Below the pieces are notes generated by a model that was not told where the DNA came from, did no database searches, and worked only from the letters and a program-made list of their open reading frames with translations. From NCBI GenBank assembly GCA_015228925.1, contig JADGCQ010000010.1:1128-65127 (forward strand): 64,000 nucleotides of DNA. Direction: 5' to 3'. Shown piece by piece: positions 35,755 to 62,574 of the stretch (within the stretch, counting starts at the first letter, position 1; each line of letters opens with the position of its first letter). This DNA comes from Magnetococcales bacterium (lineage in GTDB: Bacteria; Pseudomonadota; Magnetococcia; Magnetococcales; UBA8363). A program made the translations under genes and the position numbers.

Positions 35755-35776
35755 CCTTCTCGTATTGGAAACATAC

Positions 35777-39838: not shown

Positions 39839-39863
39839 ACCCGCTTGCCATGTTGAGAAAACA

Positions 39864-48643: not shown

Positions 48644-51600
48644 TTGTCCGAGACACCACAAGCATCTTCCATTCTGCTGTCCCATCTGCATGGGCTGAGC
48701 GATCCCCACAGAAAAATTTTGCAATTGGTTGCCATTGCTTTTGATGTCATTCCGGCATCCTTGGTGGTGGCTTGTCTGAAAAAACTGAAAATCAAGCAGT
48801 CCAATGCCGGTTGGTTTAGTGTCAGAACCTTGCAGCCCTATATTGAGTCTTTGATTGCCATGGGTTTGCTCAAACGGGATTTGGATACGGGATTTCATTT
48901 TCGGATTGTCCCGACCATTGCCGATGCTGCGGTGCTAGAGGCGGTGGCGGATGGGGTGTTTGCCGATTTGATGCGGGTCATCGAAGGGGAATTGCCGTCG
49001 GTGCTGCATTCTGGCGGCGTGGGCGGGATGCCGCGTTTGTTGAGTTTTGATCGGGCTGTGCGGGAGATTCGTCTGGGGTTGCTGACGGGGGATGAGGAGC
49101 GGGTATTTCGTTTTCTGGGGTATGCCGCCAGCCAACGTTCTGAAGAGTATCGCAGGAATCCCCCGTTGGTTCGGTTGTGTGCCGAGCCGTGGGATCTGGA
49201 GCGGATGGCGGCGTTGCCATTGGGGATTCAGGTCAAGGCTTTGGAGGAGATGCTCACCTTGGCGTTGTTGAATCTGGACCCGGTGGATGGTTTTGGAAAA
49301 CTCCTGGAGATGCACCGTCATCAACCCTGCGCCAAAAACGGACCCGAATTGCGTGCCTTGTACATGATTGTCCTGTTGATTCAGGGGCGGTTGCAAGAGG
49401 CAGTGGATTTACTGGCGAATCACAAAACCAGACCTGTGGGGGCCGAGATTGTTTTCAAGGGGTGGATCGATTTTTTGAAGGGGAAAAATCGGCAGGCGAT
49501 TGCGACCCTCGATAAGATGGTATTGCTCCTTGACGATTTCCGGCTGATGAGCAAACACAATCCATTTCCTTATTATTGGGGCGGTTTATTTTTGTTGCTG
49601 GGGTTGTTGAAACAGGGGAAGGGGGAAGCCCGTCAGCATGTGTTGAATATTGTGCAACGGATGGAACGCAATCCCAACAATCCTCTGACTTCGGCCTGTC
49701 AGGCGATGCGGGCGGTGGCTTTGGCGCGGGGAGGAGATTCCGATCATGCTCTGTTGATCTTGGGTTATCGGGCCGAAACGGCCAAAGAGGGGCTTCCATG
49801 GCTCCGTTCCGAGATGGTGACCCCGCTCATGCCGGTTCGGGAAGGGGGGTGGAATCCGGCGTTGCCCAAAGCGGTGTTTTCGTGGCGTGCGGATGGCTTG
49901 CCCGAATTGTTTCGCATGATGGCTTTGTATTGGATCGATCATGAGGTGGCGGCGGTGGCGGCGGTTGTGGCGCATGTCACGGCGATTCACAAACGGGCCT
50001 TGGCGCATGATTATCCGTGGGTGGCGATGGAGACGGCGGCCTTGTTGGGGCGGTTGACGGAGCGGGATGATTGTCGTGAGACCCAGGAGGGCTTGGAAAA
50101 ACGGTTGGGTTTTTCCTGCGTGACGGCGCAGATTCAGCGTGAGGAACGATGGGAACAAACGTTGTCGGCCCTGATGAACCTGTTGGGGCGGGGGACAGAC
50201 GATTCGAGCGGCGATTCTTTTTTGAGTGGCAACCGGCGGTTGGTTTGGCTCATCGAAACCCATGGTCATCGTGGCAGCATCCAGGCACGGGAACAGACCC
50301 TTTCCGACACGGGGGAATGGAGTCGGGGCAAGGCGTTGTCGGCGCGGCGGCTCCATGGTGCCGAGATCCACAATTGGGGGTATCTCACCCCCCAGGACAT
50401 CAAGATATGCGCGGCGATCCGTCAGGAGTACATCTATAACGGCACCCGCTATGATTTTGATTGGGCGGGGGCGATGTTGGCCATGGTCGGGCATCCCCAG
50501 GTGTATTGGCTGGACAATCCCACGACGACCATCGAGGTGATTCGCGGGGAGCCGGAATTATTGGTGAATGAACACAATGGCCGGGTCCGTATCCGCTTTG
50601 CCCACAAGATTGAGGGGCCGGGGGTGCTGGTGTTGCGGGAGGGGGAGCGTCGTTGTCGGGTGATCGAAATCACCGGCGAACACCACAAGATCGCCGACAT
50701 CCTGGGACCGGAGGGGTTCAACGGTCCCGAAACCCAGAAGGGACGGGTTATGGGGGTGGTGGCGCGATTGGCCAACCTGGTGACGATTCAATCCACGGTG
50801 GATGTTGAAGCCGATGGGGAAGAGTTGGCGGAGGTGGAGGTTGATTCGCGTCCTCGGTTGCAGTTAGTCCCCAATGGTGCTGGATTATCGGCGCGTCTGT
50901 TGGTTCGTCCTTTGGGCACATCGGGTCCATGGTCCAGGCCGGGCAAGGGGAGTGTGGTGATGTTTGCCGAACGGGATGGCCAACGGGTGAAGGTCCGCCG
51001 CGATTTTCAACAGGAAAAACGGTTGGTGGAGGAGCTGGTGGGGCTATGTCCCGCGTTGGCGGGTCGTTCGGTGGACGATTGGTCGTGGACGTTGGGCAAG
51101 GTGGAGGACTGTCTGGAACTGTTGGCGGAGCTTCAGGAGGCGGGGGACAAGGTTGTGGTCGAATGGCCGGAGGGGGAGCGGTTTCGGCTGGCCAACAAGG
51201 TGACCATGGATCGTTTGCAATTAAAAATTCGCCGGGAGCGGGATTGGTTTGCGGTGTCGGGGACGGTGACGCTGGACGATGCCTTGGTGTTGGAGATGGG
51301 GCAGTTATTGAAAATCACCAAGGCAGGCGGGCGGTTTATCCCTTTGGGCAATGGCCAGTTTGCCGCCTTGACCGAAGCATTTCGCAAGCGGTTGGCCGAA
51401 ATGTTGGACATGGGGGAGGAGGGTTCCAAGGGGTGGAAGGTCCATGCGTTGACCTCACCATGGCTCAAGGAGATGGCGGGGGAGAGTGGCCGGGTTGTTG
51501 GGGACAAACATTGGAAGGAGCAGGTAGCGCGCCTGGATGCGATGGAATCGGGGGATGCGGCGGTCCCTTCGACTTTTCAGGCGGAACTGAGGGAGTATCA

Positions 51601-52972
51601 GATCAAGGGATTTCAATGGTTGCATCGATTGTCGGTTTGGGGGGTGGGAGGATGTTTGGCGGATGACATGGGGTTGGGCAAGACGTTGCAGGCGATGGCG
51701 TTATTGCTGCATCGCGCCCCGGATGGTGCTGGATTGGTGGTGGCCCCGACATCGGTATGTACCAATTGGGAGGCGGAAATCAAACGGTTTGCCCCCACCC
51801 TCAATCCGGTGATTTTGGGGGGGCCGAACCGTGCGGAACGGGTTTCGGGGTTGAAGGCGTTTGATGTTTTGATCGTGAGTTATGCCTTGCTCCAGATTGA
51901 AGAGGAACTGTTGGGGACGGTGATTTGGAACACCATTGTGTTGGATGAGGCGCAGGCGATTAAAAATCGGATGACCAAACGGTCTCGCGCCGCCATGGCG
52001 TTGCAGGGTCATTTTCGCTTGATGACCACGGGTACCCCCATCGAGAATCATCTGGGGGAATTATGGAATTTATTCCGTTTTTTAAATCCTGGTCTGTTGG
52101 GGTCGTTGGAGCGGTTTAACGAACGGTTTGCCATCCCCATTGAACGCTTTCGGGATCGGGAGGCGTCCCAGCGGTTGAAGACGCTGATTCGTCCTTTCAT
52201 TCTACGGCGGACGAAAAATCAGGTACTTCAGGAATTGCCGCCGTTGACGGAGATTGTGTTGCATGTGGAGATGGGACCGGAGGAGTCCGCCTTTTATGAA
52301 TCGTTGCGGCAGCGGGCCATGGCCGCTTTGGAGGGGGCGGATGATGCGGGAGATGGGCAGAATCATCTGGCGATTTTGGCGGAGTTAATGACTTTACGCC
52401 GTGCGTGTTGCAACAGTCGTCTGGTACAATCGAGTTTAGTATTGCCCAGTGCCAAGCTGGAGACATTCAAGGATGTGGCGCGGACGCTGTTGGACAATCG
52501 GCACAAGGCGTTGGTATTCAGTCAATTTGTCGGTCATTTGACCATTATTCGGGAATTCTTGGTGGCCGAGGGGATTTCATTTCAATATTTGGATGGCTCG
52601 ACCCCGGTGGCCAAGCGCAAGGAGAGTATCGACGCCTTTCAGAGCGGGGTGGGGGATTTCTTTTTGATCAGCCTCAAGGCGGGTGGGGTGGGGTTGAACC
52701 TGACGGCGGCGGATTATGTGATCCATATGGATCCCTGGTGGAATCCGGCGGTCGAGGATCAAGCCTCCAATCGGGCGCATCGGTTTGGCCAGAGGCGTCC
52801 GGTGACGGTATATCGGCTGGTGACCCGTGGGACCATCGAGGAGAAGATTGTTGAACTTCACGCGCAAAAACGCGATTTGGCCGATGATCTTTTGGAAGGG
52901 GGGGATATGAGTGGTCGTTTGAGTGCCGCCGAATTGTTGGGGCTGATCCGTATGCCGATGAACGGCGCATGA
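48644..52972 (+). CDS. SNF2-family ATPase/helicase with a ~950-aa uncharacterised N-terminal region
   Basis: 1442 aa, TTG start preceded by AAGGATGAAGGGG. C-terminal SNF2 motifs LREYQIKGFQWL, LADDMGLGKTLQA, LDEAQAIKN, LMTGTPIENHL, ALVFSQF, LISLKAGGVGLNLTAA, WWNPAVEDQASNRAHRFGQ. Confidence 0.88.
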   Translation: MSETPQASSILLSHLHGLSDPHRKILQLVAIAFDVIPASLVVACLKKLKIKQSNAGWFSVRTLQPYIESLIAMGLLKRDLDTGFHFRIVPTIADAAVLEAVADGVFADLMRVIEGELPSVLHSGGVGGMPRLLSFDRAVREIRLGLLTGDEERVFRFLGYAASQRSEEYRRNPPLVRLCAEPWDLERMAALPLGIQVKALEEMLTLALLNLDPVDGFGKLLEMHRHQPCAKNGPELRALYMIVLLIQGRLQEAVDLLANHKTRPVGAEIVFKGWIDFLKGKNRQAIATLDKMVLLLDDFRLMSKHNPFPYYWGGLFLLLGLLKQGKGEARQHVLNIVQRMERNPNNPLTSACQAMRAVALARGGDSDHALLILGYRAETAKEGLPWLRSEMVTPLMPVREGGWNPALPKAVFSWRADGLPELFRMMALYWIDHEVAAVAAVVAHVTAIHKRALAHDYPWVAMETAALLGRLTERDDCRETQEGLEKRLGFSCVTAQIQREERWEQTLSALMNLLGRGTDDSSGDSFLSGNRRLVWLIETHGHRGSIQAREQTLSDTGEWSRGKALSARRLHGAEIHNWGYLTPQDIKICAAIRQEYIYNGTRYDFDWAGAMLAMVGHPQVYWLDNPTTTIEVIRGEPELLVNEHNGRVRIRFAHKIEGPGVLVLREGERRCRVIEITGEHHKIADILGPEGFNGPETQKGRVMGVVARLANLVTIQSTVDVEADGEELAEVEVDSRPRLQLVPNGAGLSARLLVRPLGTSGPWSRPGKGSVVMFAERDGQRVKVRRDFQQEKRLVEELVGLCPALAGRSVDDWSWTLGKVEDCLELLAELQEAGDKVVVEWPEGERFRLANKVTMDRLQLKIRRERDWFAVSGTVTLDDALVLEMGQLLKITKAGGRFIPLGNGQFAALTEAFRKRLAEMLDMGEEGSKGWKVHALTSPWLKEMAGESGRVVGDKHWKEQVARLDAMESGDAAVPSTFQAELREYQIKGFQWLHRLSVWGVGGCLADDMGLGKTLQAMALLLHRAPDGAGLVVAPTSVCTNWEAEIKRFAPTLNPVILGGPNRAERVSGLKAFDVLIVSYALLQIEEELLGTVIWNTIVLDEAQAIKNRMTKRSRAAMALQGHFRLMTTGTPIENHLGELWNLFRFLNPGLLGSLERFNERFAIPIERFRDREASQRLKTLIRPFILRRTKNQVLQELPPLTEIVLHVEMGPEESAFYESLRQRAMAALEGADDAGDGQNHLAILAELMTLRRACCNSRLVQSSLVLPSAKLETFKDVARTLLDNRHKALVFSQFVGHLTIIREFLVAEGISFQYLDGSTPVAKRKESIDAFQSGVGDFFLISLKAGGVGLNLTAADYVIHMDPWWNPAVEDQASNRAHRFGQRRPVTVYRLVTRGTIEEKIVELHAQKRDLADDLLEGGDMSGRLSAAELLGLIRMPMNGA

Positions 52973-53004: not shown

Positions 53005-56000
53005 ATGGCTTATACATGGTTGCACCTTTCCGACATTCACATGGGATGCCGTGGAGAAGAAATCCGCAGACAGGTGGATGCGGAGTTTAAACCCCACCTT
53101 CAGAAGATGGTGAAACGGCTGGGGGCACCGGACATGATCCTGCTGACCGGGGATCTGGCCTTTAGTGGCAAGGAGGAGGAATACAAGCAGCTTGATGCGT
53201 TTTTGGCGGCACTGACAGGATGGATCAGGGAGATCCAGCCCGATGCCCCCCCGCCGATTTGGGTACCGGTGCCGGGCAACCATGATCTGGCTAGGCCCGA
53301 TAGAAATGATTTGGTCCTGGACTTTGCCAACTTGAAACAAGTAGCGGATGGGGATGAGTCTGTACGCCACGGTTTGGGCCAACGTTTTTTCTCGAAAAAA
53401 AATGTCCAGCTTATCGCCCCGCTGTTCCAGGCGTACCAGGATTGGTTTGCCCATAAGGTGAAACCGGGTTGGGAGGGCAGGGACTTTCATCTTTCCCATT
53501 TCCCCGGTGACTGGTGCCTGGAGTTGAACCTGCCGGACCGTTTTCCTTTGCGTCTGGTCGGTTTAAATTCTGCCTGGATGCATTTGGGAGACGGCTTTGC
53601 CCATCAAAAACTGGGGCTTTTCACCCAACAATTACAGGCAGCTTTGGGAGAGAATAAAAACCTGGAATTTGCCCAGGGACCAGCACTGTTATTGCTGCAC
53701 CATCCCCCCTTGACATGGTTTTCATCCAAAGCACTCACGCGGTTCAAGGAAGAAATATATACCCCAAAACGTTTTCACGCCTGCCTGTTTGGCCACATGC
53801 ATGATGAAAACACGACCGTGATCTTTGAGGCGGGCGGACCGCCACGCTATTATCTTCAAGCCCCCTCCCTGTTTGGTGTGGAAAAACTGGGTACTTCCCA
53901 AGAGGAACGTCGGTTTGGTTATGGTTGGGGTCGGGTGACGCAGGAGGGGGAAATTTTCACTTGGCCTTTTCTGCGGGGCAAACATGGCGGGGAGCAGCAA
54001 TTTATTTGGAACTCCAACTTTTCCGGCAATGTGGAAACCGGCCATCCGTTCCGAACCAAGATGCAAGCGGTCGCTACCGTGCCGACTGTCGATCTTAAAC
54101 CCTGGCTCCGTTCCCTTCACGACCGCACCAGACATATCAAGATCAGCGGCATCGGCTCCGGCGGTGGGAGTGGCAAGAATGCCAACCTTTATCCCATCGA
54201 GCAGCTTTACACGGTTCTGAAAAGTCGTGATGTTGTAGAGGGTGGTGATCCTCTTCGTGCCGAAGAGGTCAATCTGGCCGACCTGTTGCCCAGGTACCAG
54301 CGGTTGTTCATCGAGGGGCAGCCGGGGGCGGGCAAGACGACGTTTCTGTATCTGGCCGCCGCCATGTTGGCCAAGGATCTGTTGGGAGAGGCTGGCCCGC
54401 AAGGGGAATCCTGGCGTAAACGATATTTGGGGATGGATGACCGCCAGGAAGCACCGACCCCTCTTTTTCTAAAATTATCGGAGTTGGCGGCATGGCTGGC
54501 TGATCCTAAAACACCCCAAAAAGCGGACGACCGTTTTCGCTTGTTGGATTTCCTCCAGACCACAGCCGATGCCGGGAAAGAAGACGCTTGGCGGGAGCAT
54601 TGGCAATGGTTGTTGGATGCGGGACACGCCATTCTCCTCCTGGATGGTCTGGACGAGGTGGCGGACGAAAGGGTGCGCGAACGGGTATTCGCCATTTTTC
54701 AGAATGCGGCGACCCATTGGCAAAAAATCGCCATCATCGTCAGCAGCCGTCCCTTCGGTGCGGAGAGGCTCACCGCAATGGGTTTTCACCGAACGGTGAT
54801 CGAACCGTTTGGCGCAGTTCAGGTCCGGGAGTTCATCAACCGTTGGTCGGCGGCCCTGTATGGCCATGCCATTGGCGAGCAGCCCACCGGCGAAGCGGGT
54901 AAACATACCGAAACTTTGGAAAAGGCGATTCTTGACAAGCCCACCATCCGCAAGTTGGCCTCCAATCCCGTCATGTTGACCTGCCTGTGCGTGGTTCATT
55001 GGAACGAAGGGCAATTGCCGGAAGGGCGGACGCGGGTTTATAAGGCGGTAATCCGTTGGTTGCTGGGGAGTCGGGAAGAGCAACGAACCAAAGCGGGATG
55101 CACCAACCGTTTTGCCCTGGAGGCTTTTTCCGCCATTGCCTTGACCATGATGGGAAACAGCAAGGGTGATAAGAAGGCCATCTTCGATTTGGAAGAGGCA
55201 GCCGTCGCCGTCGAGTCGCTCCATGCACGCCATTTCCCGAAAGTCACGATGGACCGGCTGATTTTGGTTCGGGAATGGGTCCGTTTTGAGTGTTTGTATA
55301 GTGGCATTCTGGAGGAGACGAGCCGAAACCGTCTCCGTTTCTGGCATTTAACCTTCCAGGAATATTTGGCGGCGCAAAACTTGGCTTGGATGAGCGATGA
55401 CAAGGACAATGGCTGGTGGTCGGTTGTCAAAAACCGGCTGGAAAACGCCCAGTGGCGGGAGACGGTAGATTTGTTTCCGGGGGCATTGTTTGATGAGGGG
55501 GGCGGACGCCGGGTGGATGAGTTACTGACGCGGGTGCTGAAAAAATATCCCGGTAATGATTTGGCGCAGGATGCCCGCAAGGCCGGTATTTTGGGGCGGA
55601 TCCTGGAGCCGATGAGGGTGTATGAATATCAGCCCAAGCCGGAAATTCAAGCTCAGTACCGGGAGGTGCTGGACCGGGCTATGGACATCTTCGAGCCGAA
55701 GGGGGCGGCCAGAGTCCCTATTGCCGTGCGCCTTCCGGCGGCGGAGGCGTTGGGCCAGGGGGGAGATCCCCGTTTTACCGGGGATCGCTGGCGGGAAGAC
55801 CTGATCAAAGTCCCCGGCACAGCCATCGCCTTGGGAAAATATCCGGTGACGGTGCAGGAATACCAACGGTTTGTCGAGGATGGCGGTTATGACAATCCCG
55901 ATTATTGGCAGGAAGATCGCGCCTGGACTTTCCGCCAAGCTGAGAAATGGCAGGAACCGGATGAGTGGGCCAATCAGTTGGACCATCCCAACCGTCCGGT

Positions 56001-56469
56001 AGTGGGGGTCTGCTGGTATGAAGCGGCGGCTTATTGCGTGTGGCTCGGCAGGAATAAAGGTGTCAAGTTTTTCTTGCCCGAGGAGAAGGATTGGGAAACA
56101 GCCGCTACCCCTGCCCAAGGGGAATATCCCTGGGGTAAGCCGGGCCCGACCCCGGAGTTAGCCAACTATGGTGATGGCCAGATTGGCGCACCGACGCCGG
56201 TGGGTCTCTATCCCGTCGGCAATGGTCCCTACGGTCATTGTGATCTGGCGGGCAACGTTTGGGAATGGTGTGCTAGCCCGGGGGAGGGTGATGATGTGTC
56301 TGACGAGGAGATTCAAAAGTACGGACTACCGAAGGTGCTTAAGGGCGGGTCCTGGTACTACGCGGCTGGCGACCTCCGCGCTGCTGGGCGTAACGGGAGC
56401 CGTGCCGATTACCGCCTCGTCGGTCTGGGCTTTCGCGTCGCCGCCCCCGCCAGCATGATTGATCCTTGA
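53005..56469 (+). CDS. DGR target 1: metallophosphoesterase-NACHT/STAND NTPase-FGE-sulfatase (C-type-lectin fold) protein with C-terminal VR
   Basis: 1154 aa; no signal peptide seen. Calcineurin-like motifs LHLSDIHMG, LLTGDLAFSG, VPGNHD, LLLHHPP, LFGHMH. Walker A IEGQPGAGKTTFL (nt ~54316-54342), Walker B ILLLDGLDEV. C-terminal FGE fold PVVGVCWYEAAAYCVWLG, LAGNVWEWC, KGGSW...LGFRVAAP. The last 42 codons carry VR1. Confidence 0.85.
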   Translation: MAYTWLHLSDIHMGCRGEEIRRQVDAEFKPHLQKMVKRLGAPDMILLTGDLAFSGKEEEYKQLDAFLAALTGWIREIQPDAPPPIWVPVPGNHDLARPDRNDLVLDFANLKQVADGDESVRHGLGQRFFSKKNVQLIAPLFQAYQDWFAHKVKPGWEGRDFHLSHFPGDWCLELNLPDRFPLRLVGLNSAWMHLGDGFAHQKLGLFTQQLQAALGENKNLEFAQGPALLLLHHPPLTWFSSKALTRFKEEIYTPKRFHACLFGHMHDENTTVIFEAGGPPRYYLQAPSLFGVEKLGTSQEERRFGYGWGRVTQEGEIFTWPFLRGKHGGEQQFIWNSNFSGNVETGHPFRTKMQAVATVPTVDLKPWLRSLHDRTRHIKISGIGSGGGSGKNANLYPIEQLYTVLKSRDVVEGGDPLRAEEVNLADLLPRYQRLFIEGQPGAGKTTFLYLAAAMLAKDLLGEAGPQGESWRKRYLGMDDRQEAPTPLFLKLSELAAWLADPKTPQKADDRFRLLDFLQTTADAGKEDAWREHWQWLLDAGHAILLLDGLDEVADERVRERVFAIFQNAATHWQKIAIIVSSRPFGAERLTAMGFHRTVIEPFGAVQVREFINRWSAALYGHAIGEQPTGEAGKHTETLEKAILDKPTIRKLASNPVMLTCLCVVHWNEGQLPEGRTRVYKAVIRWLLGSREEQRTKAGCTNRFALEAFSAIALTMMGNSKGDKKAIFDLEEAAVAVESLHARHFPKVTMDRLILVREWVRFECLYSGILEETSRNRLRFWHLTFQEYLAAQNLAWMSDDKDNGWWSVVKNRLENAQWRETVDLFPGALFDEGGGRRVDELLTRVLKKYPGNDLAQDARKAGILGRILEPMRVYEYQPKPEIQAQYREVLDRAMDIFEPKGAARVPIAVRLPAAEALGQGGDPRFTGDRWREDLIKVPGTAIALGKYPVTVQEYQRFVEDGGYDNPDYWQEDRAWTFRQAEKWQEPDEWANQLDHPNRPVVGVCWYEAAAYCVWLGRNKGVKFFLPEEKDWETAATPAQGEYPWGKPGPTPELANYGDGQIGAPTPVGLYPVGNGPYGHCDLAGNVWEWCASPGEGDDVSDEEIQKYGLPKVLKGGSWYYAAGDLRAAGRNGSRADYRLVGLGFRVAAPASMIDP
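56343..56452 (+). repeat. DGR variable repeat VR1
   Basis: Gap-free match to TR 57794-57903 with 14 mismatches, all at TR adenines (hand alignment). Lies in the last 42 codons of the 53005-56469 CDS. Confidence 0.9.
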
Positions 56470-56498
56470 TTTTTTTGATTTTTGTCCTTTGTGGGGGT

Positions 56499-56519
56499 CC
56501 AGGGGGCGCAGCCCCCTGG
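56499..56519 (+). promoter_or_regulatory. GC hairpin 29 nt downstream of the VR1-gene stop (candidate DGR target-recognition hairpin/cruciform)
   Basis: CCAGGGGGC-gca-GCCCCCTGG: 9-bp perfect stem, 3-nt loop. The same element at the same spacing follows VR2. Confidence 0.7.
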
Positions 56520-56540
56520 TTTTGCAAAATGGCCTATTTT

Positions 56541-56652
56541 TGTCATTTTAGGGCTGTTTTTGTCATTTTGATTGACAGAATAGCGATATTTTATTAGATT
56601 TTGTCATTCTGGTGTCATTTTGACGATCATCGTGTCACTTTGAAAGTGACAC
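56541..56652. promoter_or_regulatory. array of TGTCA/TGACA half-sites and palindromes upstream of the DGR accessory genes
   Basis: TGTCA at 56541, 56602. TGTCA-N7-TGACA at 56561-56577. GTCA-TTT-TGAC at 56614-56624. 21-bp perfect palindrome GTGTCACTTT-G-AAAGTGACAC at 56632-56652, ending 1 nt before the annotated ATG. Confidence 0.6.
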
Positions 56653-56653
56653 A

Positions 56654-57346
56654 ATGACAAAGAACACGAGGGATTGTCATGTGAATCTGTCTCTGACCGA
56701 AGCGGCCATCGTCCTGGGGAAGACCCCTCGGCAGGTGCGCTATCTCATCAAGAACGGGACGCTGAAGGCGAAGAAGGAAAAGGGGTGCTGGGTCATCGAC
56801 AACGCCGATCTTCCCCTTTCCGCCGCCCAGCGTCAGGCGGTGGCCCGACGTGCCGAGACCGCACAGAATGCCATGGCCGAAGCCACCGAACCGCTGCGAA
56901 AAGCGGCATCCCCGGCCCCTTCCCCCGCAGAAACGAAAACCGCAGACGGCGAAAAAGAGAAAAAAGTCTATTCCGTCACCGATCTGAAGGCTTTTACCCT
57001 GGGAGCGGACATTTGCCGGGCGTTGGAAACGCATCTGGGCCGGGAGGATTCCGCCAGGCTTTGCCTTTTTGAAGCCCTGAAGAAGCTCTGCCGGGGGTGT
57101 CACGCCTTTCAACCGCCCCAAAAGGAGGCTCGTTTTACCGAGGCACGGGAGGCGGCAGCGGATGCGGTCGCCATCTTGCTCCTGGAAGGCGATGCCGATG
57201 ATCCCCAGCGCACCACCCTGGCCCGCCGCATTGAGACCGAACTGATCCCCAAGCTGGCGGCGTTGGCCGCTGGTCAGGAAAAACGGGCGCGCAAAAAACA
57301 GCAGGGGAGCCTCAGCGGCTTTTTCCCCGGCATGCTTGGGGAGTGA
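56654..57346 (+). CDS. helix-turn-helix (excisionase/MerR-like HTH) protein, DGR-associated
   Basis: 230 aa. N-terminal LSLTEAAIVLGKTPRQVRYLIKNGTLKAKKEKGCWVI resembles an HTH_17-type motif. Stop overlaps the avd start (GTGATG). An alternative GTG start at 56681 has GAGGGA upstream. A long antisense ORF is considered a GC shadow. Confidence 0.6.
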   Translation: MTKNTRDCHVNLSLTEAAIVLGKTPRQVRYLIKNGTLKAKKEKGCWVIDNADLPLSAAQRQAVARRAETAQNAMAEATEPLRKAASPAPSPAETKTADGEKEKKVYSVTDLKAFTLGADICRALETHLGREDSARLCLFEALKKLCRGCHAFQPPQKEARFTEAREAAADAVAILLLEGDADDPQRTTLARRIETELIPKLAALAAGQEKRARKKQQGSLSGFFPGMLGE

Positions 57347-57687
57347 TGCGACCCGCCCCCCTGTATGGCGACACCATGCGCCTCGCCGCCCTGATTCTTC
57401 GGTTGACCGAAACACCGACGTTCAGGCAGTCACCATTGGGGCGGCGCTTGCAGGATGGTGCGTTGCGTCTTGTGGATCATGTGGTGTTGGCGTTGGCCGG
57501 CCAGGACCGGCAACACCGCATCGCTGCCGCCGATGCCGAACTGCAAACCTTGCGTGCCCATTGTTTTCTCGCGCTTCAAATGGCCTTGATGGAGGAAGAT
57601 TCTTTTTTGATACTGGCCGAAGCGGCCCAAAAGGTGGGTCGGCAATTGGGTGGATGGATCAAAAAAGGGCGGGCTAAATCCGCTTGA
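57343..57687 (+). CDS. avd: DGR accessory variability determinant (Avd, four-helix-bundle family)
   Basis: 113-114 aa, basic and helical. C-terminus AEAAQKVGRQLGGWIKKGRAK resembles Bordetella phage bAvd AEVGRILGSWIARVNRKGQ. Located immediately upstream of TR and RT. Start is GTG 57343 or ATG 57346. Confidence 0.8.
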   Translation: MMRPAPLYGDTMRLAALILRLTETPTFRQSPLGRRLQDGALRLVDHVVLALAGQDRQHRIAAADAELQTLRAHCFLALQMALMEEDSFLILAEAAQKVGRQLGGWIKKGRAKSA

Positions 57688-57793
57688 CGCCGCAGAAAAC
57701 TTGCCTCCCAGGGGAGGGGCCGCTATTCTGAACTGGGGACGCTTCGAAACAAGAATTCCGCTATGGCTATGGACATCACCATGAACCCACAAG

Positions 57794-57903
57794 GGGCGGG
57801 TCCTGGAACAACGCGGCTGACAACCTCCGCGCTGCTAGGCGTAACAGGAACCATGCCGATAACCGCAACGACAATCTGGGCTTTCGCGTCGCCGCCCCCG
57901 CCA
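57794..57903 (+). repeat. DGR template repeat (TR)
   Basis: Non-coding copy of VR1/VR2 between avd and RT. 23 adenines in 110 nt; seven AAC codons when read in the VR frame (RGGSWNNAADNLRAARRNRNHADNRNDNLGFRVAAP). Confidence 0.9.
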
Positions 57904-57970
57904 ACACGCCGGACACATCCGCCGTGCAGAAGTGGCCCCGGTGCTTGCATTGTGCGCCGAAACATCCCAT

Positions 57971-58020
57971 GCCCGCCCGTTCTCGTAGGCAGCAGACGCC
58001 GAGCGTCCGGGCGGGCTTTT
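57971..58020 (+). other. GC-rich stem-loop plus T-tract in the TR-RT spacer
   Basis: GCCCGCCCG (57971-57979) pairs with CGGGCGGGC (58008-58016). Inner GACGC/GCGTC pair (57995-57999 / 58003-58007). Followed by TTTT (58017-58020), 15 nt before the RT ATG. Confidence 0.55.
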
Positions 58021-58034
58021 TCGCCTTTGTGACC

Positions 58035-59027
58035 ATGCGTCGCTTTGGCAATCTGTTTGTGGAGGTCGCCTCGACGAACAATCTTTGGCGGGCCTGGCAG
58101 GACTTTTCCAAAGGAAAACGCCAGCGCATCACGGTGGCTGATTTTGTATGGCAAGCACCCCAGGAAGTTGTGTCTCTGCACCAGCAATTGATGGCGGAGA
58201 ACTATCGCCCCCAGGGCTATCGTCTGAAAATGATTCATGAACCCAAACACCGCCTGGTGGCGGCAGCTCCGGTGTGTGACCGAATCGTCCATCATGCCAT
58301 CTATCGAATTCTCTCACCGCTTTTGGATCCAGGGTTGATCCGGGAGACCTGGGCCTGTCTGCAAGGGCGCGGCAGCCATCGGGCGCAAATCGCCTGTGTG
58401 GGGGCCATGCGGAATTATCCCTGGCGGATGGCCCTGGATATACGCCATTACTTTCCCAGTATTGATCACGCCATTCTTCTGGAGGAGGTCATGGCGCGGC
58501 GTATCAAGGACCGGCGTCTGCTCGAACTGCTCAGGAAAATCTGTCGCAGTGGTGCTGGACTCTATCGGCATCCGGGGATTGGGGAATTTTTGGATTTTCC
58601 CCCTGGTTTTCCCCCGGATGGATGTGGTCTGCCCATTGGCAATCTGACCAGTCAGTGGCAGGCCAATCACTATCTTTCGGGATTGGATCACCATGCCAAA
58701 CGGGTTCTTGGGGTTCCCGCCTACCATCGGTACATGGATGACATGGTTTTTTTCGCCCATTCCAAAAGCCAGTTGCAGGAGACCCGTGACGCCGTGGCCC
58801 AATGGCTTTGGGTGTATCGGCGTCTGAAATTGAAACATCCCAACGCCGCCATCCGTTCCACCAAGCAACCCATGACCTGGCTGGGCAAACGCATTTCCAC
58901 CGCCGGTATCAACCCAAGTCGGCGGCAGATTCGCAAAATGCAGTGTCGGATGACAACCCTGGTCCGTCAGGGGGATGAGGAGACCATCCGCCATGCCGTT
59001 GCCTCCTATCGCGGAGTGCTGTTGTAA
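58035..59027 (+). CDS. DGR reverse transcriptase
   Basis: 330 aa from MRRFGNLFVEVASTNNLWRAWQDFSKGKRQR. RT motifs include LPIGNLTSQWQANHYL (the I/LGxxxSQ signature of DGR RTs) and catalytic YHRYMDDMVFF. Start set at ATG 58035, downstream of TR; the track ORF begins at 57924, 21 nt downstream of TR. Confidence 0.88.
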   Translation: MRRFGNLFVEVASTNNLWRAWQDFSKGKRQRITVADFVWQAPQEVVSLHQQLMAENYRPQGYRLKMIHEPKHRLVAAAPVCDRIVHHAIYRILSPLLDPGLIRETWACLQGRGSHRAQIACVGAMRNYPWRMALDIRHYFPSIDHAILLEEVMARRIKDRRLLELLRKICRSGAGLYRHPGIGEFLDFPPGFPPDGCGLPIGNLTSQWQANHYLSGLDHHAKRVLGVPAYHRYMDDMVFFAHSKSQLQETRDAVAQWLWVYRRLKLKHPNAAIRSTKQPMTWLGKRISTAGINPSRRQIRKMQCRMTTLVRQGDEETIRHAVASYRGVLL

Positions 59028-59035
59028 GGGAAGAT

Positions 59036-59155
59036 TGACAAAGTGTCATTTATAAGGTGACGTTTTGTCAGTTTGTCACTTTTCAAATGACACTTTGTCC
59101 ATTTGAATGGACAAAATTGGATGTAAAACGACCTGATTGTCACTTTAAATGACAA
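59036..59155. promoter_or_regulatory. second array of TGTCA/TGACA palindromes downstream of the RT gene
   Basis: TGACA-AAG-TGTCA 59036-59048. TGAC-N5-GTCA 59058-59070. TGTCA-N9-TGACA 59074-59092. TTGTCCAT-TTGA-ATGGACAA 59095-59114. TTGTCA-N7-TGACAA 59137-59155. Confidence 0.6.
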
Positions 59156-59185
59156 AAAACGGCTATTTTTGGTCATTTTGCAAAG

Positions 59186-59206
59186 CCAGGGGGCTACGCC
59201 CCCTGG
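59186..59206 (-). promoter_or_regulatory. GC hairpin 29 nt downstream of the VR2-gene stop
   Basis: On the coding (minus) strand: CCAGGGGGC-gta-GCCCCCTGG. Mirror image of the 56499-56519 element. Confidence 0.7.
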
Positions 59207-59235
59207 ACCCCCACAAAGGACAAAAACCAAAAAAA

Positions 59236-62200
59236 TCAAGGATCAACCATGCTGGCGGGGGCGGCGACGCGAAAGCCCAGAAAGACGTAGCGGTTATCGG
59301 CATGGCTCCAGTTACGCCCAGCAGCGCGGAGGCTGTCAGCCGCGAAGCCCCAGGACCCGCCCCTGATAGGATGAACATCTCGATCACCTTTGGTGATAAC
59401 GGGATCCTGGGTTGGCACCGCGCCAGTGCGTTTTTTATAAGCCTTCTCATCCCAAATATCTCGGCACCATTCCCAGACGTTGCCGGCCAGATCGAGATGG
59501 CCGAAAGGACCACGGCCAGCGGGATATTGTCCCACCAGTTCCGGCTTCCCTTTTTGCCCGTCCAAGCCAAAACAGGCCAACTCCTTCGTTGGTTTTTTAT
59601 CGCCGTCCCAGGGATAAACGCGACCATCGCTTCCCCGTGCGGCATATTCCCATTGCGCCTCGCTGGGTAGAAGAATGGGACTCCCGGACTCTTTGCTGAG
59701 CCATGCGCAAAAGGCCATGGCATCGTTCCAATCCACACCTACTACCGGCTGCTCTGGATCCGAGAATCTTTGGTCGCGCCAATACTCAGGTTCTTTGTGT
59801 TTTACCGCTTTGAGAAAAAGTCCATACTGTTGGTTGGTCACTGGTGTTTCCGCCAATAGGAACGGCGAGAGTTTCACCCGATGCTCCGGTTTTTCATAAC
59901 TGTTTCCTTTGTTGTCTCCCATGGTGAAAATGCCACCGGGTACCGGCAACAGCCGTAGCCCCGGCAAAGGCTCCAGAATTTTCGTTGCCGTGATCTCTCG
60001 GCCATGAACGGCGTTGACCAGGGCTTTTGCCCCCGCTGCCAGGGAGGAACGGGCATCGACCATTACGGTCCCCAGTGGTGCGGGGAGCTTGGGTGCCGCC
60101 GGGCTATCCGGCGTGAACACTGTGATCAGGCGGCAGTCGCTGGCCAGATAGTGCAACCCCTCTTCACATTCGGCGTCGGTAAACAGACGGTCTTCAGCAC
60201 CGAGCAGAAAGGCAACGGCCCCGACCTTGGCCCGAATCGGATCCAGGTATTGCAGCCATTCGTTGGAGACCCATTCCCGCGCCGTTTTCGGCCAGACATG
60301 CACCCCCGCATCGGCCAGGAGAGGGGCCAATTGTTCGGCGAAGGTCTCCCTATCGGCATCATGGATCAGTAGCAGGTCATAGTCTTTGCCACCCGCTTCG
60401 CCCAACAGCCCCTGTGCCAGCCTGGAGACGTTTTCATCTGTATGTTGTTTCAGCCCCTCCGCAGCCGCTAGAACGGCGGTATCGGTCACCCCCTTGAGTA
60501 GCCGCAGAATCGCCGTCAGGTGTCCCACCGACGTTTTTTTATCCTGTAGTGCCTTGGCAAAAACAGAATAATCGGTCTGTTCCGCCTCGGTCAGCATATC
60601 CCGCATCAGATTGGCGCGGTCTCCCTTGAGAATATCCGGCAACAGCCGCGTCATGAACGGCGCGAATAGTTGATGGTCTGGGATCCCCACCAATAACAAC
60701 AACACCTCGCGCCACCATTTTTCATCCCCCTGACTTGCCAGAAAGTCCAAGAGCGTTTCGTCCGACGACGCCATCACCACATGCCGCGCCGCCAGATATT
60801 CCTGCAACCCCAGATGCATGAAGCCATACTGATTGGGTGCATATTCGATGAAAACGCCCGTATCGCGGTGGAGCCACTCCAAAATTTGGAGTCCCGTGGG
60901 TCTGTTTTTTTGACTGGGCAAGCATTTTTCAGCAAAATTGGCAAATTCCAGCCGTTTGACATTATCGCGGCGGTTTTCCTGGTGAAGTTTCCAGGCCAGG
61001 GGGCGCAGGATGTCCAGGGCTGTTTTTACATCCAGGAGTGGTTCACCCCCAGTTTGCTCCCGACGCCATTTGCCCAATAGGATTTCCAGGCATCGTTGAT
61101 AAAACGCCGCCCGTTTTTTGGGAATTTCTCCCACCCGGAGTACCACTACACACAACAGGGTGAGCAACAGTGGGTTGCCCATCAACACCTTGATGCGTTG
61201 GTCGGAAAAATTATTCTCATCCATGGCTTTGAGGAGGCGCAGGGAACGGGCTTTGGCTTCATTAGCCAAGTCGGGTACGAGATATTGGCCAGCCTCATCG
61301 AACCAAACTTTGACGAATTCCTCGACCTGTTCACCATCCAGGGGTTTGACATCCAGGGGAAAGAAATTTTCCAGCCGCACCCCATCCCCATATCCGGTAA
61401 AACGACAAGAGACGGCGGCGTAGATCTGCTGGTTTTGTAAACCGACCAGACCATCGTTGATTCGTTTTGCCACTTTGGCCCGCAGGTTGGAGTCGGCGAT
61501 TTCATCCAAGCCGTCGAAGAGGAGCAACAGCTTGCCATCTTTCCAATAATCCCGGCCTAGTTCTTTTGGGAAACGCCCGGCGGAAAGATCTCCTAATTCT
61601 TTGTCGATGAAGGATTGGAGGGGTATATGCAGATATTCTTCGCTAAAATGGCGCAGACGCAAAAAGACCGGCATCAACCCTTCCGGTAACCCCAAAGAGT
61701 GCGACCCTTGGATGAGGCAATGGTGCAGCATTTTTTTAAGCGAGGTCGTTTTGCCCGCACCCGGTTCACCAAACAACACCACGCACTGCCGCAAGCCGCC
61801 GTCCGCATTTTTGAAAGCCTCTTCCAGTTTGACATCACCAGCACTTTGCTGCCACGCCTCCTCGGCTATGCGCCCCCGACGCTCTTTCAGATCAACCCCA
61901 AAGGCGCGTTGCGAGATGCGCAACGGCACATAGACTTCATTTAAATCTAGGGAAATATCACCACCATCCACCCCCAACAACGACAACCGGCCAAATTTCT
62001 CCAGTGCCCAGGTGGAATAGCCATCTTTCCCGGTGTTTGCAATCTTTTCCTCCACGGGTGGAGGCTGCTTGGCCAGTTCTCGGATACGTTGGGACAGTTC
62101 CAGAAATTTTCTTTTCCTTTCTACAGGTTGCAATTCCTCCAATGTTTTGCCTGGTGTTCCGAATCCTTGAAACTCGGTCAGTTTTATCTGGGAAGTGGTG

Positions 62201-62574
62201 CCACTGTCTGGGTGAATAAAAGAAATCTCGCCGACGGATGATGGTGATAAAAACACGGGAAGGATCGTGAGTCGTCCCTGTTCACTCGCGGAAAGAATAG
62301 GAGGAAGTTCATATGTTTTAATAAAATGAGAGGCTAGAAAAATTTCCGAGATAAACAAAATGGCTGTTTGTGTTTGGCGCAGTGCTTCCTCTATCTCTTT
62401 GCGCCATTTGTCTCCTGCTTTGATGTCTTGATCTACCCAAACTCGGGCAACTCCGTCAGCCTCCAAAGTTTGTTTGAAAGGGAGAAACTCTCGCAGCACT
62501 TCTTCATCCGCGTGACTATAGCTGATAAAAACTTTTGATCTTTGCACGACTTTCATCCATTCAATTTGGGTCAC
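59236..62574 (-). CDS. DGR target 2: TIR-NACHT/STAND NTPase-FGE-sulfatase (C-type-lectin fold) protein with C-terminal VR
   Basis: 1112 aa; no signal peptide seen. N-terminal TIR-like KVFISYSHADEEVLREFLPF...VWVDQDIKAGDKWRKEIEEAL...AILFISEIFLAS. Walker A LFGEPGAGKTTSL (nt ~61744-61773), Walker B LLLLFDGLDEI. C-terminal FGE fold PVVGVDWNDAMAFCAWLS, LAGNVWEWC, RGGSW...LGFRVAAP. Start is GTG 62574 or ATG 62556. Confidence 0.85.
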   Translation of the reverse strand: MTQIEWMKVVQRSKVFISYSHADEEVLREFLPFKQTLEADGVARVWVDQDIKAGDKWRKEIEEALRQTQTAILFISEIFLASHFIKTYELPPILSASEQGRLTILPVFLSPSSVGEISFIHPDSGTTSQIKLTEFQGFGTPGKTLEELQPVERKRKFLELSQRIRELAKQPPPVEEKIANTGKDGYSTWALEKFGRLSLLGVDGGDISLDLNEVYVPLRISQRAFGVDLKERRGRIAEEAWQQSAGDVKLEEAFKNADGGLRQCVVLFGEPGAGKTTSLKKMLHHCLIQGSHSLGLPEGLMPVFLRLRHFSEEYLHIPLQSFIDKELGDLSAGRFPKELGRDYWKDGKLLLLFDGLDEIADSNLRAKVAKRINDGLVGLQNQQIYAAVSCRFTGYGDGVRLENFFPLDVKPLDGEQVEEFVKVWFDEAGQYLVPDLANEAKARSLRLLKAMDENNFSDQRIKVLMGNPLLLTLLCVVVLRVGEIPKKRAAFYQRCLEILLGKWRREQTGGEPLLDVKTALDILRPLAWKLHQENRRDNVKRLEFANFAEKCLPSQKNRPTGLQILEWLHRDTGVFIEYAPNQYGFMHLGLQEYLAARHVVMASSDETLLDFLASQGDEKWWREVLLLLVGIPDHQLFAPFMTRLLPDILKGDRANLMRDMLTEAEQTDYSVFAKALQDKKTSVGHLTAILRLLKGVTDTAVLAAAEGLKQHTDENVSRLAQGLLGEAGGKDYDLLLIHDADRETFAEQLAPLLADAGVHVWPKTAREWVSNEWLQYLDPIRAKVGAVAFLLGAEDRLFTDAECEEGLHYLASDCRLITVFTPDSPAAPKLPAPLGTVMVDARSSLAAGAKALVNAVHGREITATKILEPLPGLRLLPVPGGIFTMGDNKGNSYEKPEHRVKLSPFLLAETPVTNQQYGLFLKAVKHKEPEYWRDQRFSDPEQPVVGVDWNDAMAFCAWLSKESGSPILLPSEAQWEYAARGSDGRVYPWDGDKKPTKELACFGLDGQKGKPELVGQYPAGRGPFGHLDLAGNVWEWCRDIWDEKAYKKRTGAVPTQDPVITKGDRDVHPIRGGSWGFAADSLRAAGRNWSHADNRYVFLGFRVAAPASMVDP
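59253..59362 (-). repeat. DGR variable repeat VR2
   Basis: The reverse complement matches TR 57794-57903 without gaps. 12 mismatches, all at TR adenines. Lies in the last 42 codons of the 59236-62574 CDS. Confidence 0.9.

Follow-up and report, generated by a model that had tools for sequence, protein, structure and literature searches.

A gene on the minus strand of the window, the 64,000-nucleotide stretch of Magnetococcales DNA analysed here, raises the question of what a second TIR-like module does in a protein that already begins with a TIR domain. The protein, T2, combines an N-terminal effector domain with a NACHT NTPase and a C-terminal sensor diversified by a DGR, and the additional module lies just before this sensor. 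An answer depends on whether the module is a TIR domain at all, on whether it could be catalytic, and on how widely it is shared among relatives of T2.

Architecture of T2 and its DGR cassette

T2 follows the tripartite order of effector, NTPase and sensor, with one extra domain between the last two. From the N-terminus, it comprises a TIR domain, a NACHT module, a helical region, the internal TIR and an FGE/C-type-lectin domain containing the VR:

59236..62574, minus strand: T2 coding sequence, 1112 aa, GTG start (ORF list, Pfam)
62182..62532, minus strand: N-terminal TIR, aa 15-131, AbTir-like subtype (Pfam TIR_2, PADLOC, alignment)
62308-62310, minus strand: E89, candidate catalytic Glu of the N-terminal TIR (alignment to AbTir E208)
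61294..61785, minus strand: NACHT NTPase module, aa 264-427 (Pfam NACHT, 28.5 bits, cut-off 26.7)
61747-61770, minus strand: Walker A motif GEPGAGKT, aa 269-276 (motif position)
within the NACHT module, minus strand: Walker B motif LLLFDGLDE, aa 350-358 (motif position)
60457..61293, minus strand: winged-helix and helical region after NACHT, aa 428-706 (secondary structure in the full-length AF2 model)
~60004..60384, minus strand: internal TIR by family profiles, AF2 and Foldseek, aa 731-857
60169-60171, minus strand: E802, Glu position of WxxxE, with F798 as the aromatic residue (alignment)
59239..59979, minus strand: sensor of FGE-sulfatase/C-type-lectin fold, aa 866-1112 (Pfam, PDB sequence matches)
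59250..59364, minus strand: VR2, 3′ end of T2 (TR/VR alignment)
59186..59206, minus strand: hairpin after VR2, 9-bp GC stem and 3-nt loop, likely DGR target-recognition element

A preliminary description had located this reading frame and quoted several of its peptides, all of which were found at 59236-62574 on the minus strand. Landmarks are KVFISYSHAD from aa 14, GEPGAGKT from aa 269, DYDLLLIHDAD from aa 731 (nt 60384) and VAFLLGAEDRLF at aa 787-798 (nt 60181-60216). The description also placed a NACHT P-loop behind the TIR, in agreement with the Pfam match and the Walker A position. Within Walker B, residues D354, G355, L356, D357 and E358 are invariant across 33 homologues. The region from aa 428 to 706 is all-helical in the full-length AF2 model (pLDDT 70), ends in short helical repeats and has a weak Pfam NLRC4_HD2 match at aa 587-680. 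The sensor is recognized by the FGE-sulfatase profile (aa 876-1104, E 2.5e-52), and its PDB sequence matches are FGE, EgtB, PvdO and the DGR target TvpA (2y3c). The NACHT profile, both Walker motifs and the domain order place T2 with NACHT/STAND NLR-like sensors (bNACHT, FGS antigen-receptor type). From these features we infer that T2 is a cytoplasmic bacterial immune sensor of the NLR-like (NACHT/STAND) kind and that a chromosomal DGR rewrites its binding tip.

The neighbours of T2 are a reverse transcriptase, an Avd-like protein, an HTH protein, the second target T1, an SNF2 helicase and DapF. The DGR-related elements are the following:

53005..56469, plus strand: T1, metallophosphoesterase, NACHT and FGE/C-type-lectin domains with VR1 (Pfam, TR/VR alignment)
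56343-56455, plus strand: VR1 of T1 (TR/VR alignment)
56499-56519: hairpin after VR1
56654..57346, plus strand: HTH_17 protein inside the cassette (Pfam), kept in the related Magnetococcales cassette L002
57343..57687, plus strand: Avd-like accessory protein (bAvd E 1.2e-8, with 35.8 bits against a cut-off of 40)
57792..57906, plus strand: TR, the template repeat (TR/VR alignment)
57924..59027, plus strand: DGR reverse transcriptase (RVT_1 Pfam; PADLOC RT E 2.7e-36)

VR2 is changed at 13 of 26 TR adenines and VR1 at 15 of 25, with no other mismatch in either repeat. All TR adenines fall at codon positions 1 and 2, and the adenine-specific changes span the last ~38 codons of the FGE/C-type-lectin domains of T1 and T2. 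By this substitution pattern, a single TR is shown to feed two convergent targets through adenine-specific mutagenesis. The hairpin motif occurs twice within the window, against 0 copies expected by chance, and one copy follows each VR; the hairpins are conserved, and the one after VR2 is a likely DGR target-recognition element.

The preliminary description had further proposed a phosphoesterase-bearing paralogue that draws on the same template. T1 indeed carries a calcineurin-like phosphoesterase in place of the TIR and is served by the same single TR, so that ‘two outputs from one template’ is accurate as a description of the architecture. Three related MAG loci have no RT cassette and contain a broken T2. 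The locus in the window is a compact and apparently intact example: it has a reverse transcriptase, an Avd-like protein and a TR as well as two diversified targets bearing different effectors, and this contrast makes it well suited to reconstitution. Nothing else in bacteria comes as close as the DGR-diversified NACHT-lectin proteins to an NLR whose receptor varies somatically in an adaptive style.

Identity and distribution of the internal module

Ahead of the FGE domain, the preliminary description had noted with low confidence a segment of TIR/flavodoxin-like pattern. Searched alone, this segment of T2 has TIR_2 as its only or best Pfam match (E 0.002-0.003, profile positions 8-110 of 122), at 18-19 bits and thus below the gathering threshold of 28. 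The best PDB sequence-profile match is a designed Rossmann 2x3 protein, and an exhaustive phmmer search gave only 7 proteins. These results would suit an alpha/beta domain of a general flavodoxin-like or receiver-like type whose likeness to a TIR is accidental. However, two of the phmmer matches, P0125 and P0126, align through their own N-terminal TIR_2 domains, and the family as a whole gives a far stronger signal. Relatives that begin with an Mrr, metallophosphoesterase, CHAT or kinase domain, or with no recognized domain, reach 27-32 bits against TIR_2 at this position, and the profile matches 24 of 33 aligned internal segments, with a best E of 1.8e-20. The internal-TIR family profile finds BtpA, AbTIR, BtTir, PdTIR, MAL and MyD88 in the PDB. 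When compared by hhalign with the N-terminal TIRs of the same family, it aligns over 118 columns (99.9%, E 1.9e-31), including a C-terminal motif specific to this TIR subfamily.

The predicted structure points the same way. An AF2 model of the internal module (pLDDT 81.8, pTM 0.79) is an alpha/beta domain ordered strand-helix-strand-helix-strand-helix-strand-strand-helix, and the helical-repeat fold considered beforehand was not seen. Among the best 50 Foldseek matches of this model in the PDB, 49 are TIR domains or belong to the related SEFIR type (IL-17 receptor/ACT1), the lone exception being a putative pilus-assembly protein at rank 33. TM-scores of the matches range from 0.5 to 0.67, with ~0.6 on TIRs of the AbTir/BtTir/PdTIR/BtpA type. 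A chance likeness is accordingly very improbable; judged by family profile and modelled fold, the internal module of T2 is a true TIR domain. By sequence comparison it is also a paralogue of the TIR that serves most family members as N-terminal effector. The suspected segment was therefore rightly identified as TIR-like, while its range needs extension: the earlier ~nt 60130-60420 takes in the part from strand A to helix C, and the full domain continues to ~nt 60004 (aa 857). In the full-length model, the adjoining linkers (aa 718-732 and 858-866) have pLDDT below 50, suggesting that the internal TIR folds as an independent unit on flexible linkers.

An internal TIR is present in 53 of the 61 closest homologues and is found behind six N-terminal effector types (Mrr, phosphoesterase, CHAT, kinase, SEFIR and TIR). 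Homologues with a source annotation come from Magnetococcales, Nitrospirae, Acidobacteriota, Thermoanaerobaculia, Polyangiaceae and Pseudomonadota, and a genome scan added relatives from Myxococcota MAGs. As judged from these domain orders, the internal TIR is a family-wide, effector-independent module and is not special to T2. It is absent from T1, P0007, P0008 and five phosphoesterase-type relatives. This loss in several lineages, T1 included, implies that the module is dispensable for the basic NACHT-lectin design.

Catalytic residues and roles of the two TIR domains

The N-terminal TIR retains two residues on which TIR NADases depend. Pfam TIR_2 matches at aa 15-111 with E 8.5e-20 and 71.9 bits (cut-off 28), and the ThsB/TIR effector models of PADLOC also recognize it (ThsB E 8.7e-11). 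In an alignment with AbTir, PdTIR and BtTir, E89 falls on the catalytic Glu (AbTir E208) and G53 on the BB-loop Gly (AbTir G174). The Glu is kept in 24 of 25 aligned N-terminal-TIR sequences, T2 among them, and both residues are kept in all 19 N-terminal TIRs of the set used for comparison with internal ones. The helix-C Trp is not conserved in T2, where a Phe occurs shifted by one residue. In AbTir, activity is abolished by E208A, absent or very low with G174A and diminished by E208D (10.1101/2022.05.07.491051). The strong profile match and the aligned Glu bear out the earlier assignment of a bacterial TIR domain to the N-terminus, and the best reading of this domain is a NADase effector.

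The internal TIR presents a different picture. At the positions of AbTir G174, W204 and E208 it has Ser, Phe (F798) and Glu (E802), respectively. E802 stands at the start of helix C, with F798 four positions earlier, and its alignment to the catalytic Glu of BtTir, AbTir and PdTIR runs via canonical internal TIRs, the one in P0049 for example. Across 53 internal TIRs, the E208-equivalent is Glu in 25, Asp in 11 and another residue in 17. The BB-loop Gly, needed for NADase assembly, is found in only 7 of them but in all 19 N-terminal TIRs, and the median length of the BB-loop window is 14 residues instead of 18. As a class without conserved Glu and Gly and with a mostly shortened BB loop, the internal TIR looks catalytically degenerate.

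Several observations nevertheless speak for a second active NADase or signal-generating domain, which would be the effector in relatives lacking an N-terminal TIR. T2 itself has both the aromatic residue and the Glu, so that some residual or unconventional catalysis is conceivable, and 25 of the 53 relatives have Glu and 11 Asp. The orthologues P0001 and P0002 have no fused N-terminal TIR and yet keep F798 and E802. Among close relatives, the N-terminal TIR is missing in L001 and cut off by a stop codon in L005/L006, leaving the internal TIR as the only TIR of the long polypeptide. Against this stand the Ser of T2 and the absence of the Gly from 46 of the 53 relatives, the full retention of both residues in N-terminal TIRs of the same proteins, and the effects of G174A and E208D in AbTir. 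The position of the domain also seems awkward for an effector: STAND oligomers cluster effectors at the N-terminus, as in NLR assemblies, whereas the internal TIR adjoins the peripheral sensor. Because the BB-loop Gly is missing and the Glu is not conserved in the family, we consider it unlikely that the internal TIR acts as a further NADase.

Degenerate catalytic residues could also mark a functionless relic of a domain duplication or fusion. Several lineages have lost the internal TIR, and of all folded parts of the protein it shows the weakest conservation, with a mean column identity of 30% in the internal-TIR alignment (A2) against 49% in the full-length alignment (A3). Measured against the closest orthologue, its dN/dS is 0.6 and that of NACHT 0.12; the former value is based on only 11 substitutions and an orthologue that is possibly decaying. 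A relic is harder to reconcile with retention at the same position in most homologues, under the various source labels listed above, and with a TIR fold that is still confidently predicted. A non-catalytic signature persists as well: the helix-C Trp is kept in 37 of 53 internal TIRs, the tail ‘PVLLPG...LP..L....W.DLR.G’ endures, and D840 is invariant in 33 sequences. A relic appears about as improbable as a second enzyme. By exclusion, the internal TIR is most likely a regulatory or structural pseudo-TIR.

On balance, we favour a model in which T2 is a DGR-tipped NLR-like sensor with an N-terminal TIR NADase as effector and a non-catalytic internal pseudo-TIR of structural or regulatory function. 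Capture of a ligand by the diversified lectin pocket would release NACHT autoinhibition, and NTP-dependent oligomerization would then cluster the N-terminal TIRs in BB-loop-mediated assemblies. The clustered domains would cleave NAD+, and depletion or signal production would lead the infected cell to arrest or die. In T1, the same type of recognition would be coupled to a phosphoesterase output. The internal TIR, whatever the effector, may dock or position the sensor, contribute to autoinhibition or provide contacts between protomers. A more specific and tentative proposal is that the dead TIR, through TIR-TIR or TIR-sensor contacts, couples occupancy of the lectin pocket to NACHT activation or bridges protomers, possibly T2 with the TIR-less T1. 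It would then be a single-chain bacterial counterpart of the regulator and executor TIRs of plant paired NLRs, irrespective of the N-terminal effector.

With the conserved internal pseudo-TIR, the familiar three-part plan of effector, NTPase and sensor gains a fourth module. A regulatory function of this module in activation would explain how a hypervariable sensor can be held in a safe, autoinhibited state and would provide a bacterial case of a TIR recruited to a non-enzymatic role. Should the module prove vestigial or weakly catalytic, what remains is one more carefully annotated representative of a class already known.

Relation to known systems

The two-target DGR NACHT-lectin class has already been published. 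Loci encoding DGR-diversified STAND/NACHT-CLec ‘antigen sensors’ were described in multicellular bacteria, with reverse transcriptases of clade 5D (Dore et al., 2024, PNAS, PMC10907252). In the available portion of that study, the loci share with the window a chromosomal DGR and two targets, each with a NACHT/STAND NTPase at its centre and one CLec domain (FGE-type) with VR at its C-terminus; TIR, peptidase and phosphoesterase domains are among the effectors at the N-terminus, and magnetotactic bacteria are among the hosts. The same portion treats TIR as an effector, contains no description of a conserved TIR between NTPase and CLec, and states that none of the CLec-type STAND sensors has been characterized experimentally. 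A target listed there with CHAT and TIR may correspond to the architecture of P0033 (CHAT-NACHT-TIR-FGE). As far as the accessible text extends, the window agrees with this class in every tested respect. Unlike these hosts, the host of the window, a Magnetococcales relative, is not known to be multicellular.

‘Antigen-receptor type’ bacterial NACHT proteins with an FGS sensor form a closely similar group (Kaur et al., 2020, eLife, PMC7159879; Kibby et al., bioRxiv 10.1101/2022.07.19.500537). According to the sections available, they resemble T2 and T1 in the order effector, NACHT and FGS and in a predicted DGR link, and TIR, REase and calcineurin-like phosphoesterase are listed among their N-terminal effectors. 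Those sections locate effectors at the very ends of the proteins, N- or C-terminal, and do not discuss an internal TIR before FGS. In the parts of the literature on DGR NACHT-CLec/FGS proteins that were accessible, no description of a conserved internal pseudo-TIR was found.

Among TIR NADases, the N-terminal TIR of T2 aligns with AbTir, BtTir, PdTIR and BtpA over ~95 residues and keeps the BB-loop Gly and catalytic Glu. In contrast to those enzymes, neither TIR of T2 belongs to a stand-alone coiled-coil-TIR protein, and the internal one is without the BB-loop Gly. The PADLOC matches recall the ThsB protein of Thoeris. No ThsA-like SIR2/SLOG or other receptor gene occurs among the ORFs and Pfam matches of the neighbours in the T2 cassette, and identity with Thoeris was rejected because the TIR of T2 shares one chain with a sensor and an NTPase of its own.

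Plant TIR-NLRs follow the same logic of TIR, NTPase and sensor as T2. They differ in that T2 has both TIRs in one polypeptide, a NACHT instead of an NB-ARC module and a DGR-diversified lectin fold instead of an LRR; unlike in plant pairs, the internal TIR of the T2 type also occurs with non-TIR effectors. In the RPS4/RRS1 pair, one TIR signals and the other regulates the signalling TIR. The heterodimer of these two domains (4c6t) is among the Foldseek matches of the internal TIR, and by analogy T2 may likewise combine a catalytic TIR with one that acts through TIR-TIR contacts.

Domain architecture of T2 and its N-terminal TIR

T2, the DGR target that holds the variable repeat VR2, is a 1112-aa protein encoded on the minus strand (59236-62574 in the ORF list). 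Pfam places the following domains in it:

T2 aa 15-111, minus strand: TIR_2, E 8.5e-20, 71.9 bits against a cut-off of 28
T2 aa 264-427, minus strand: NACHT, 28.5 bits against a cut-off of 26.7
T2 aa 876-1104, minus strand: FGE-sulfatase, E 2.5e-52

The preliminary description had read a TIR followed by a NACHT from the sequence; both lie above their cut-offs, and the peptides it quoted are all found where it had placed them. PADLOC TIR models (ThsB, SAVED-TIR and TIR effectors) match the N-terminus, and the NACHT motifs are intact by motif position and homologue alignment. When the N-terminal TIR is aligned to AbTir, PdTIR and BtTir, G53 corresponds to the BB-loop Gly and E89 falls on the catalytic Glu, which is kept in 24/25 aligned N-terminal-TIR sequences, T2 counted in. 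Compared with a profile of the internal TIRs of this family, the domain reaches only 61% in hhalign (E 8e-5). By sequence, it is an AbTir-like subtype, other than the family's usual effector TIR. Membership of T2 in Thoeris and in Avs was rejected: a ThsA gene is absent, and the NTPase is of the NACHT type and paired with an FGE sensor.

An apparently degenerate TIR in front of the sensor

A second TIR-like module before the sensor had been proposed at low confidence and is now firmly a TIR. Scanned alone, T2 aa 701-865 gives TIR_2 as its sole Pfam match, at 18-19 bits and under the cut-off of 28. A word-indexed homologue search with the internal segment alone gave no match, and one with an alignment of internal segments (A2) gave a single short fragment. 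Exhaustive phmmer with the segment returned 7 matches only, three of which (P0122-P0124) were set aside as low-complexity or repeat proteins. The assignment is firm because four independent lines agree: relatives, PDB profile, structure prediction and profile-profile comparison.

Where a relative carries something other than a TIR at its N-terminus, TIR_2 still appears between NACHT and FGE at 27-32 bits: behind an Mrr nuclease (P0012, P0018, P0021), a metallophosphoesterase (P0014), CHAT (P0033), a protein kinase (P0054) or, in P0055, no recognised N-terminal domain. TIR_2 is matched by 24/33 aligned internal segments, with a best E of 1.8e-20. The internal-segment profile matches BtpA, AbTIR, BtTir, PdTIR, MAL and MyD88 in the PDB. 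Structure prediction of the segment, a check that the preliminary description had proposed, yields a confident AlphaFold2 model from A2 with alternating strands and helices (pLDDT 81.8, pTM 0.79). Among its best 50 Foldseek matches in the PDB, 49 are TIR or related SEFIR-type structures (TM-score 0.5-0.67), including SPARTA TIR-APAZ, MAL, AbTIR, TRR-2, RPS4/RRS1, BtpA, PdTIR, SARM1, MyD88 and the IL-17RA/RB/ACT1 assembly; the exception, at rank 33, is a putative pilus-assembly protein. A profile of 53 internal segments matches the N-terminal TIRs of 16 family members at a probability of 99.9% (E 1.9e-31) over 118 columns, taking in the subfamily-specific tail 'PVLLPG..P.LP.FL....W.DLR.G', and the internal TIR is therefore a paralogue of the family's usual effector TIR.

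The full-length AlphaFold2 model of T2 has a pTM of 0.43, at which domain boundaries are usable but inter-domain geometry is not. There the internal TIR runs from strand A (aa 734-738) to helix E (aa 845-856), and since the linkers around it (aa 718-732 and 858-866) have pLDDT < 50, it behaves as a unit of its own along the polypeptide.

In AbTir, the catalytic Glu is E208 (E208A is dead, E208D reduced), the BB-loop G174 is essential (activity of G174A is absent or very low), and an aromatic residue at the W204 position is needed for cyclisation (10.1101/2022.05.07.491051). The canonical internal TIR of the homologue P0049 carries 'PWQEREM', which aligns with 'NWTEYEL' of BtTir and 'DWTNYEL' of AbTir. 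T2 F798 and E802 share columns of this motif in the segment alignment, and E802 opens helix C in the segment model and the full-length model alike. The Glu sought in the preliminary description is thus present in the T2 internal TIR, as this E802.

Catalytic and BB-loop positions of N-terminal and internal TIRs
Position; N-terminal TIRs; internal TIRs; T2 internal TIR
Glu (E208 equivalent); 19/19; 25/53 (Asp 11, other 17); E802
BB-loop Gly (G174 equivalent); 19/19; 7/53; Ser
BB-loop window, median residues; 18; 14; 18, not shortened

By this family pattern, the internal-TIR Glu does not experience the selection that acts on true effectors. Because conservation of Glu and Gly is lost across the family, we infer that the T2 internal TIR is most likely non-catalytic. 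Its dN/dS comprises 11 substitutions only, from an orthologue without the N-terminal TIR, and is given little weight. The second TIR of the preliminary description is thus a real domain, but probably a pseudo-enzyme and a feature of the family, not peculiar to T2.

The internal TIR occurs in 53/61 closest homologues, after TIR, SEFIR, Mrr, phosphoesterase, CHAT and kinase N-termini. It is missing, with 19-33 residues in its place, from the paralogous DGR target T1, P0007, P0008 and five phosphoesterase-type proteins. Homologues with an annotated source come from Magnetococcales, Nitrospirae, Acidobacteriota, Thermoanaerobaculia, Polyangiaceae and Pseudomonadota; a genome scan with full-length T2 found 3 loci only. 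The module occurs regardless of which effector precedes it, so its general role cannot be to autoinhibit the N-terminal TIR in a TIR-TIR manner. Drift of the catalytic residues among internal TIRs makes it unlikely that the module is a second NADase throughout the family. A pure relic is also unlikely, as a non-catalytic signature is maintained at constant position: a helix-C Trp (37/53 internal TIRs), D840, which does not vary across 33 sequences, and the LPG/LP..L/W.DLR tail. What remains is a putative effector-independent role, structural or regulatory, beside the sensor.

The DGR cassette and related loci

The template repeat (TR) has a counterpart at the 3' end of each of the convergent genes T1 (53005-56469, plus strand) and T2, which enclose the remaining cassette genes:

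56343-56455, plus strand (in T1): VR1, differs from TR at 15/25 template adenines and at no other position
56654-57346, plus strand: 230-aa ORF between T1 and the Avd-like gene, HTH_17 (MerR/excisionase-type) N-terminal
57343-57687, plus strand: Avd-like ORF between T1 and T2, bAvd match below threshold
57792-57906: TR
57924-59027, plus strand: reverse transcriptase (RT) between T1 and T2 (Pfam/PADLOC)
59250-59364, minus strand (in T2): VR2, differs from TR at 13/26 template adenines and at no other position

The template adenines are all at codon positions 1 and 2. The adenine-only differences, the RT and the two targets in the cassette bear out the DGR context first ascribed to T2. Its paralogue had been described as bearing a phosphoesterase, and T1 indeed has a metallophosphoesterase domain (Pfam E 3.9e-10) in which the motifs DxH, GD, GNHD, HH and GHxH, read by eye from the sequence, are all present. 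VR1 and VR2 have diverged from each other in the TR/VR comparison, so the T1 and T2 sensors need not recognise one ligand.

An identical 9-bp GC hairpin lies downstream of VR1 and VR2 (2 copies in the window against 0 expected). A 207-nt inverted repeat of 88% identity (56343-56549 / 59156-59362) joins both target 3' ends and runs ~90 nt past the VRs over stop codons, a T-rich tract and the GC hairpin; because it extends past the VRs, T1 and T2 share a conserved 3' non-coding element besides the VR.

The genes around the cassette are of an ordinary chromosomal kind: HisG, a pyruvate carboxylase subunit, DapF and two-component systems. A 1442-aa SNF2-family helicase (48644-52972, plus strand), whose N-terminal ~980 aa have no Pfam match, precedes T1 in the same orientation, its end 33 nt away; this adjacency is kept in the related loci L001 and L005/L006, not in L002. 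An unusual sensory cluster, unrelated to T2, lies at 33574-41021 (plus strand). It starts with a 726-aa DctP-type and Peripla_BP_6 double solute-binding fusion; next come a 1370-aa hybrid PAS histidine kinase, which has an Hpt domain and two receiver domains, and a receiver-histidine kinase.

A Magnetococcales MAG (L002) has a cassette like that of the window, with a T2-like gene, RT, small ORF, HTH ORF and T1-like gene. A 221-aa HTH_17 ORF occupies the position equivalent to window 56654-57346; the HTH_17 protein is a candidate for a conserved accessory factor or regulator in DGRs of this lineage. The T1 orthologue (L002 14568-17648) shares 64% identity with T1 over a stretch that starts shortly before the NACHT (T1 aa ~354) and continues through the C-terminus, and its first ~210 residues are unrelated to the T1 metallophosphoesterase and have no Pfam match. 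The pattern suggests that the effector was exchanged while the rest of the protein was kept.

In the closer relatives L001 (the Magnetococcus sp. THC-1_WYH MAG, the closest of all) and L005 and L006 (two further MAG assemblies), the 2.7-kb HTH-Avd-TR-RT block between the targets is gone. L001 9600-13440 has 94-97% nucleotide identity to window 56445-62574, with ~530 bp in place of the block. Homology of its T2 begins at codon ~185, the N-terminal TIR is absent, and the sequence immediately upstream carries Mu-like phage genes (Portal_Mu, Mu_F, GemA, Mor). The loss could be phage-associated disruption of a defence gene, or a MAG assembly join. A pseudogenised T1 orthologue in L001 is ruled out by an intact 1153-aa ORF. 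L005/L006 7494-10826, corresponding to window 59236-62574, has an in-frame TAG at the Q170 position in the TIR-NACHT linker, which splits T2 into a 165-aa TIR ORF and a 941-aa NACHT-TIR-FGE ORF; a ~160-aa coiled-coil ORF stands where the RT cassette is missing. No RT was found in the loci of the family members L003 and L004.

Putative action of T2 and described DGR targets

If T2 works in the way established for NLR, STAND and TIR proteins, a ligand would bind in its diversified lectin pocket and the NACHT module would then oligomerise. The N-terminal TIRs, once clustered, would form composite NADase sites, leading to NAD+ depletion or signal production. T1 would give a phosphoesterase output driven by the same template.

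According to Dore et al. (2024, PMC10907252), two targets per DGR are common, in magnetotactic hosts among others; these combine a NACHT/nSTAND NTPase at the centre with a C-terminal CLec and a TIR, peptidase or phosphoesterase N-terminal domain, and such CLec-STAND proteins are without experimental characterisation. Other work ties FGS-type 'antigen-receptor' NACHT proteins to DGRs (Kaur et al., 2020, PMC7159879; Kibby et al., 10.1101/2022.07.19.500537). The searched literature, available in part, gave no description of a conserved degenerate TIR between NTPase and sensor; the 'NCAB' domain of Kibby et al. is possibly the same. By every testable feature, T2 is a member of the known DGR NACHT-CLec class. 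The window resembles the DGR loci of Dore et al. (2024) in having two NACHT-CLec targets per DGR, with TIR and phosphoesterase N-termini.
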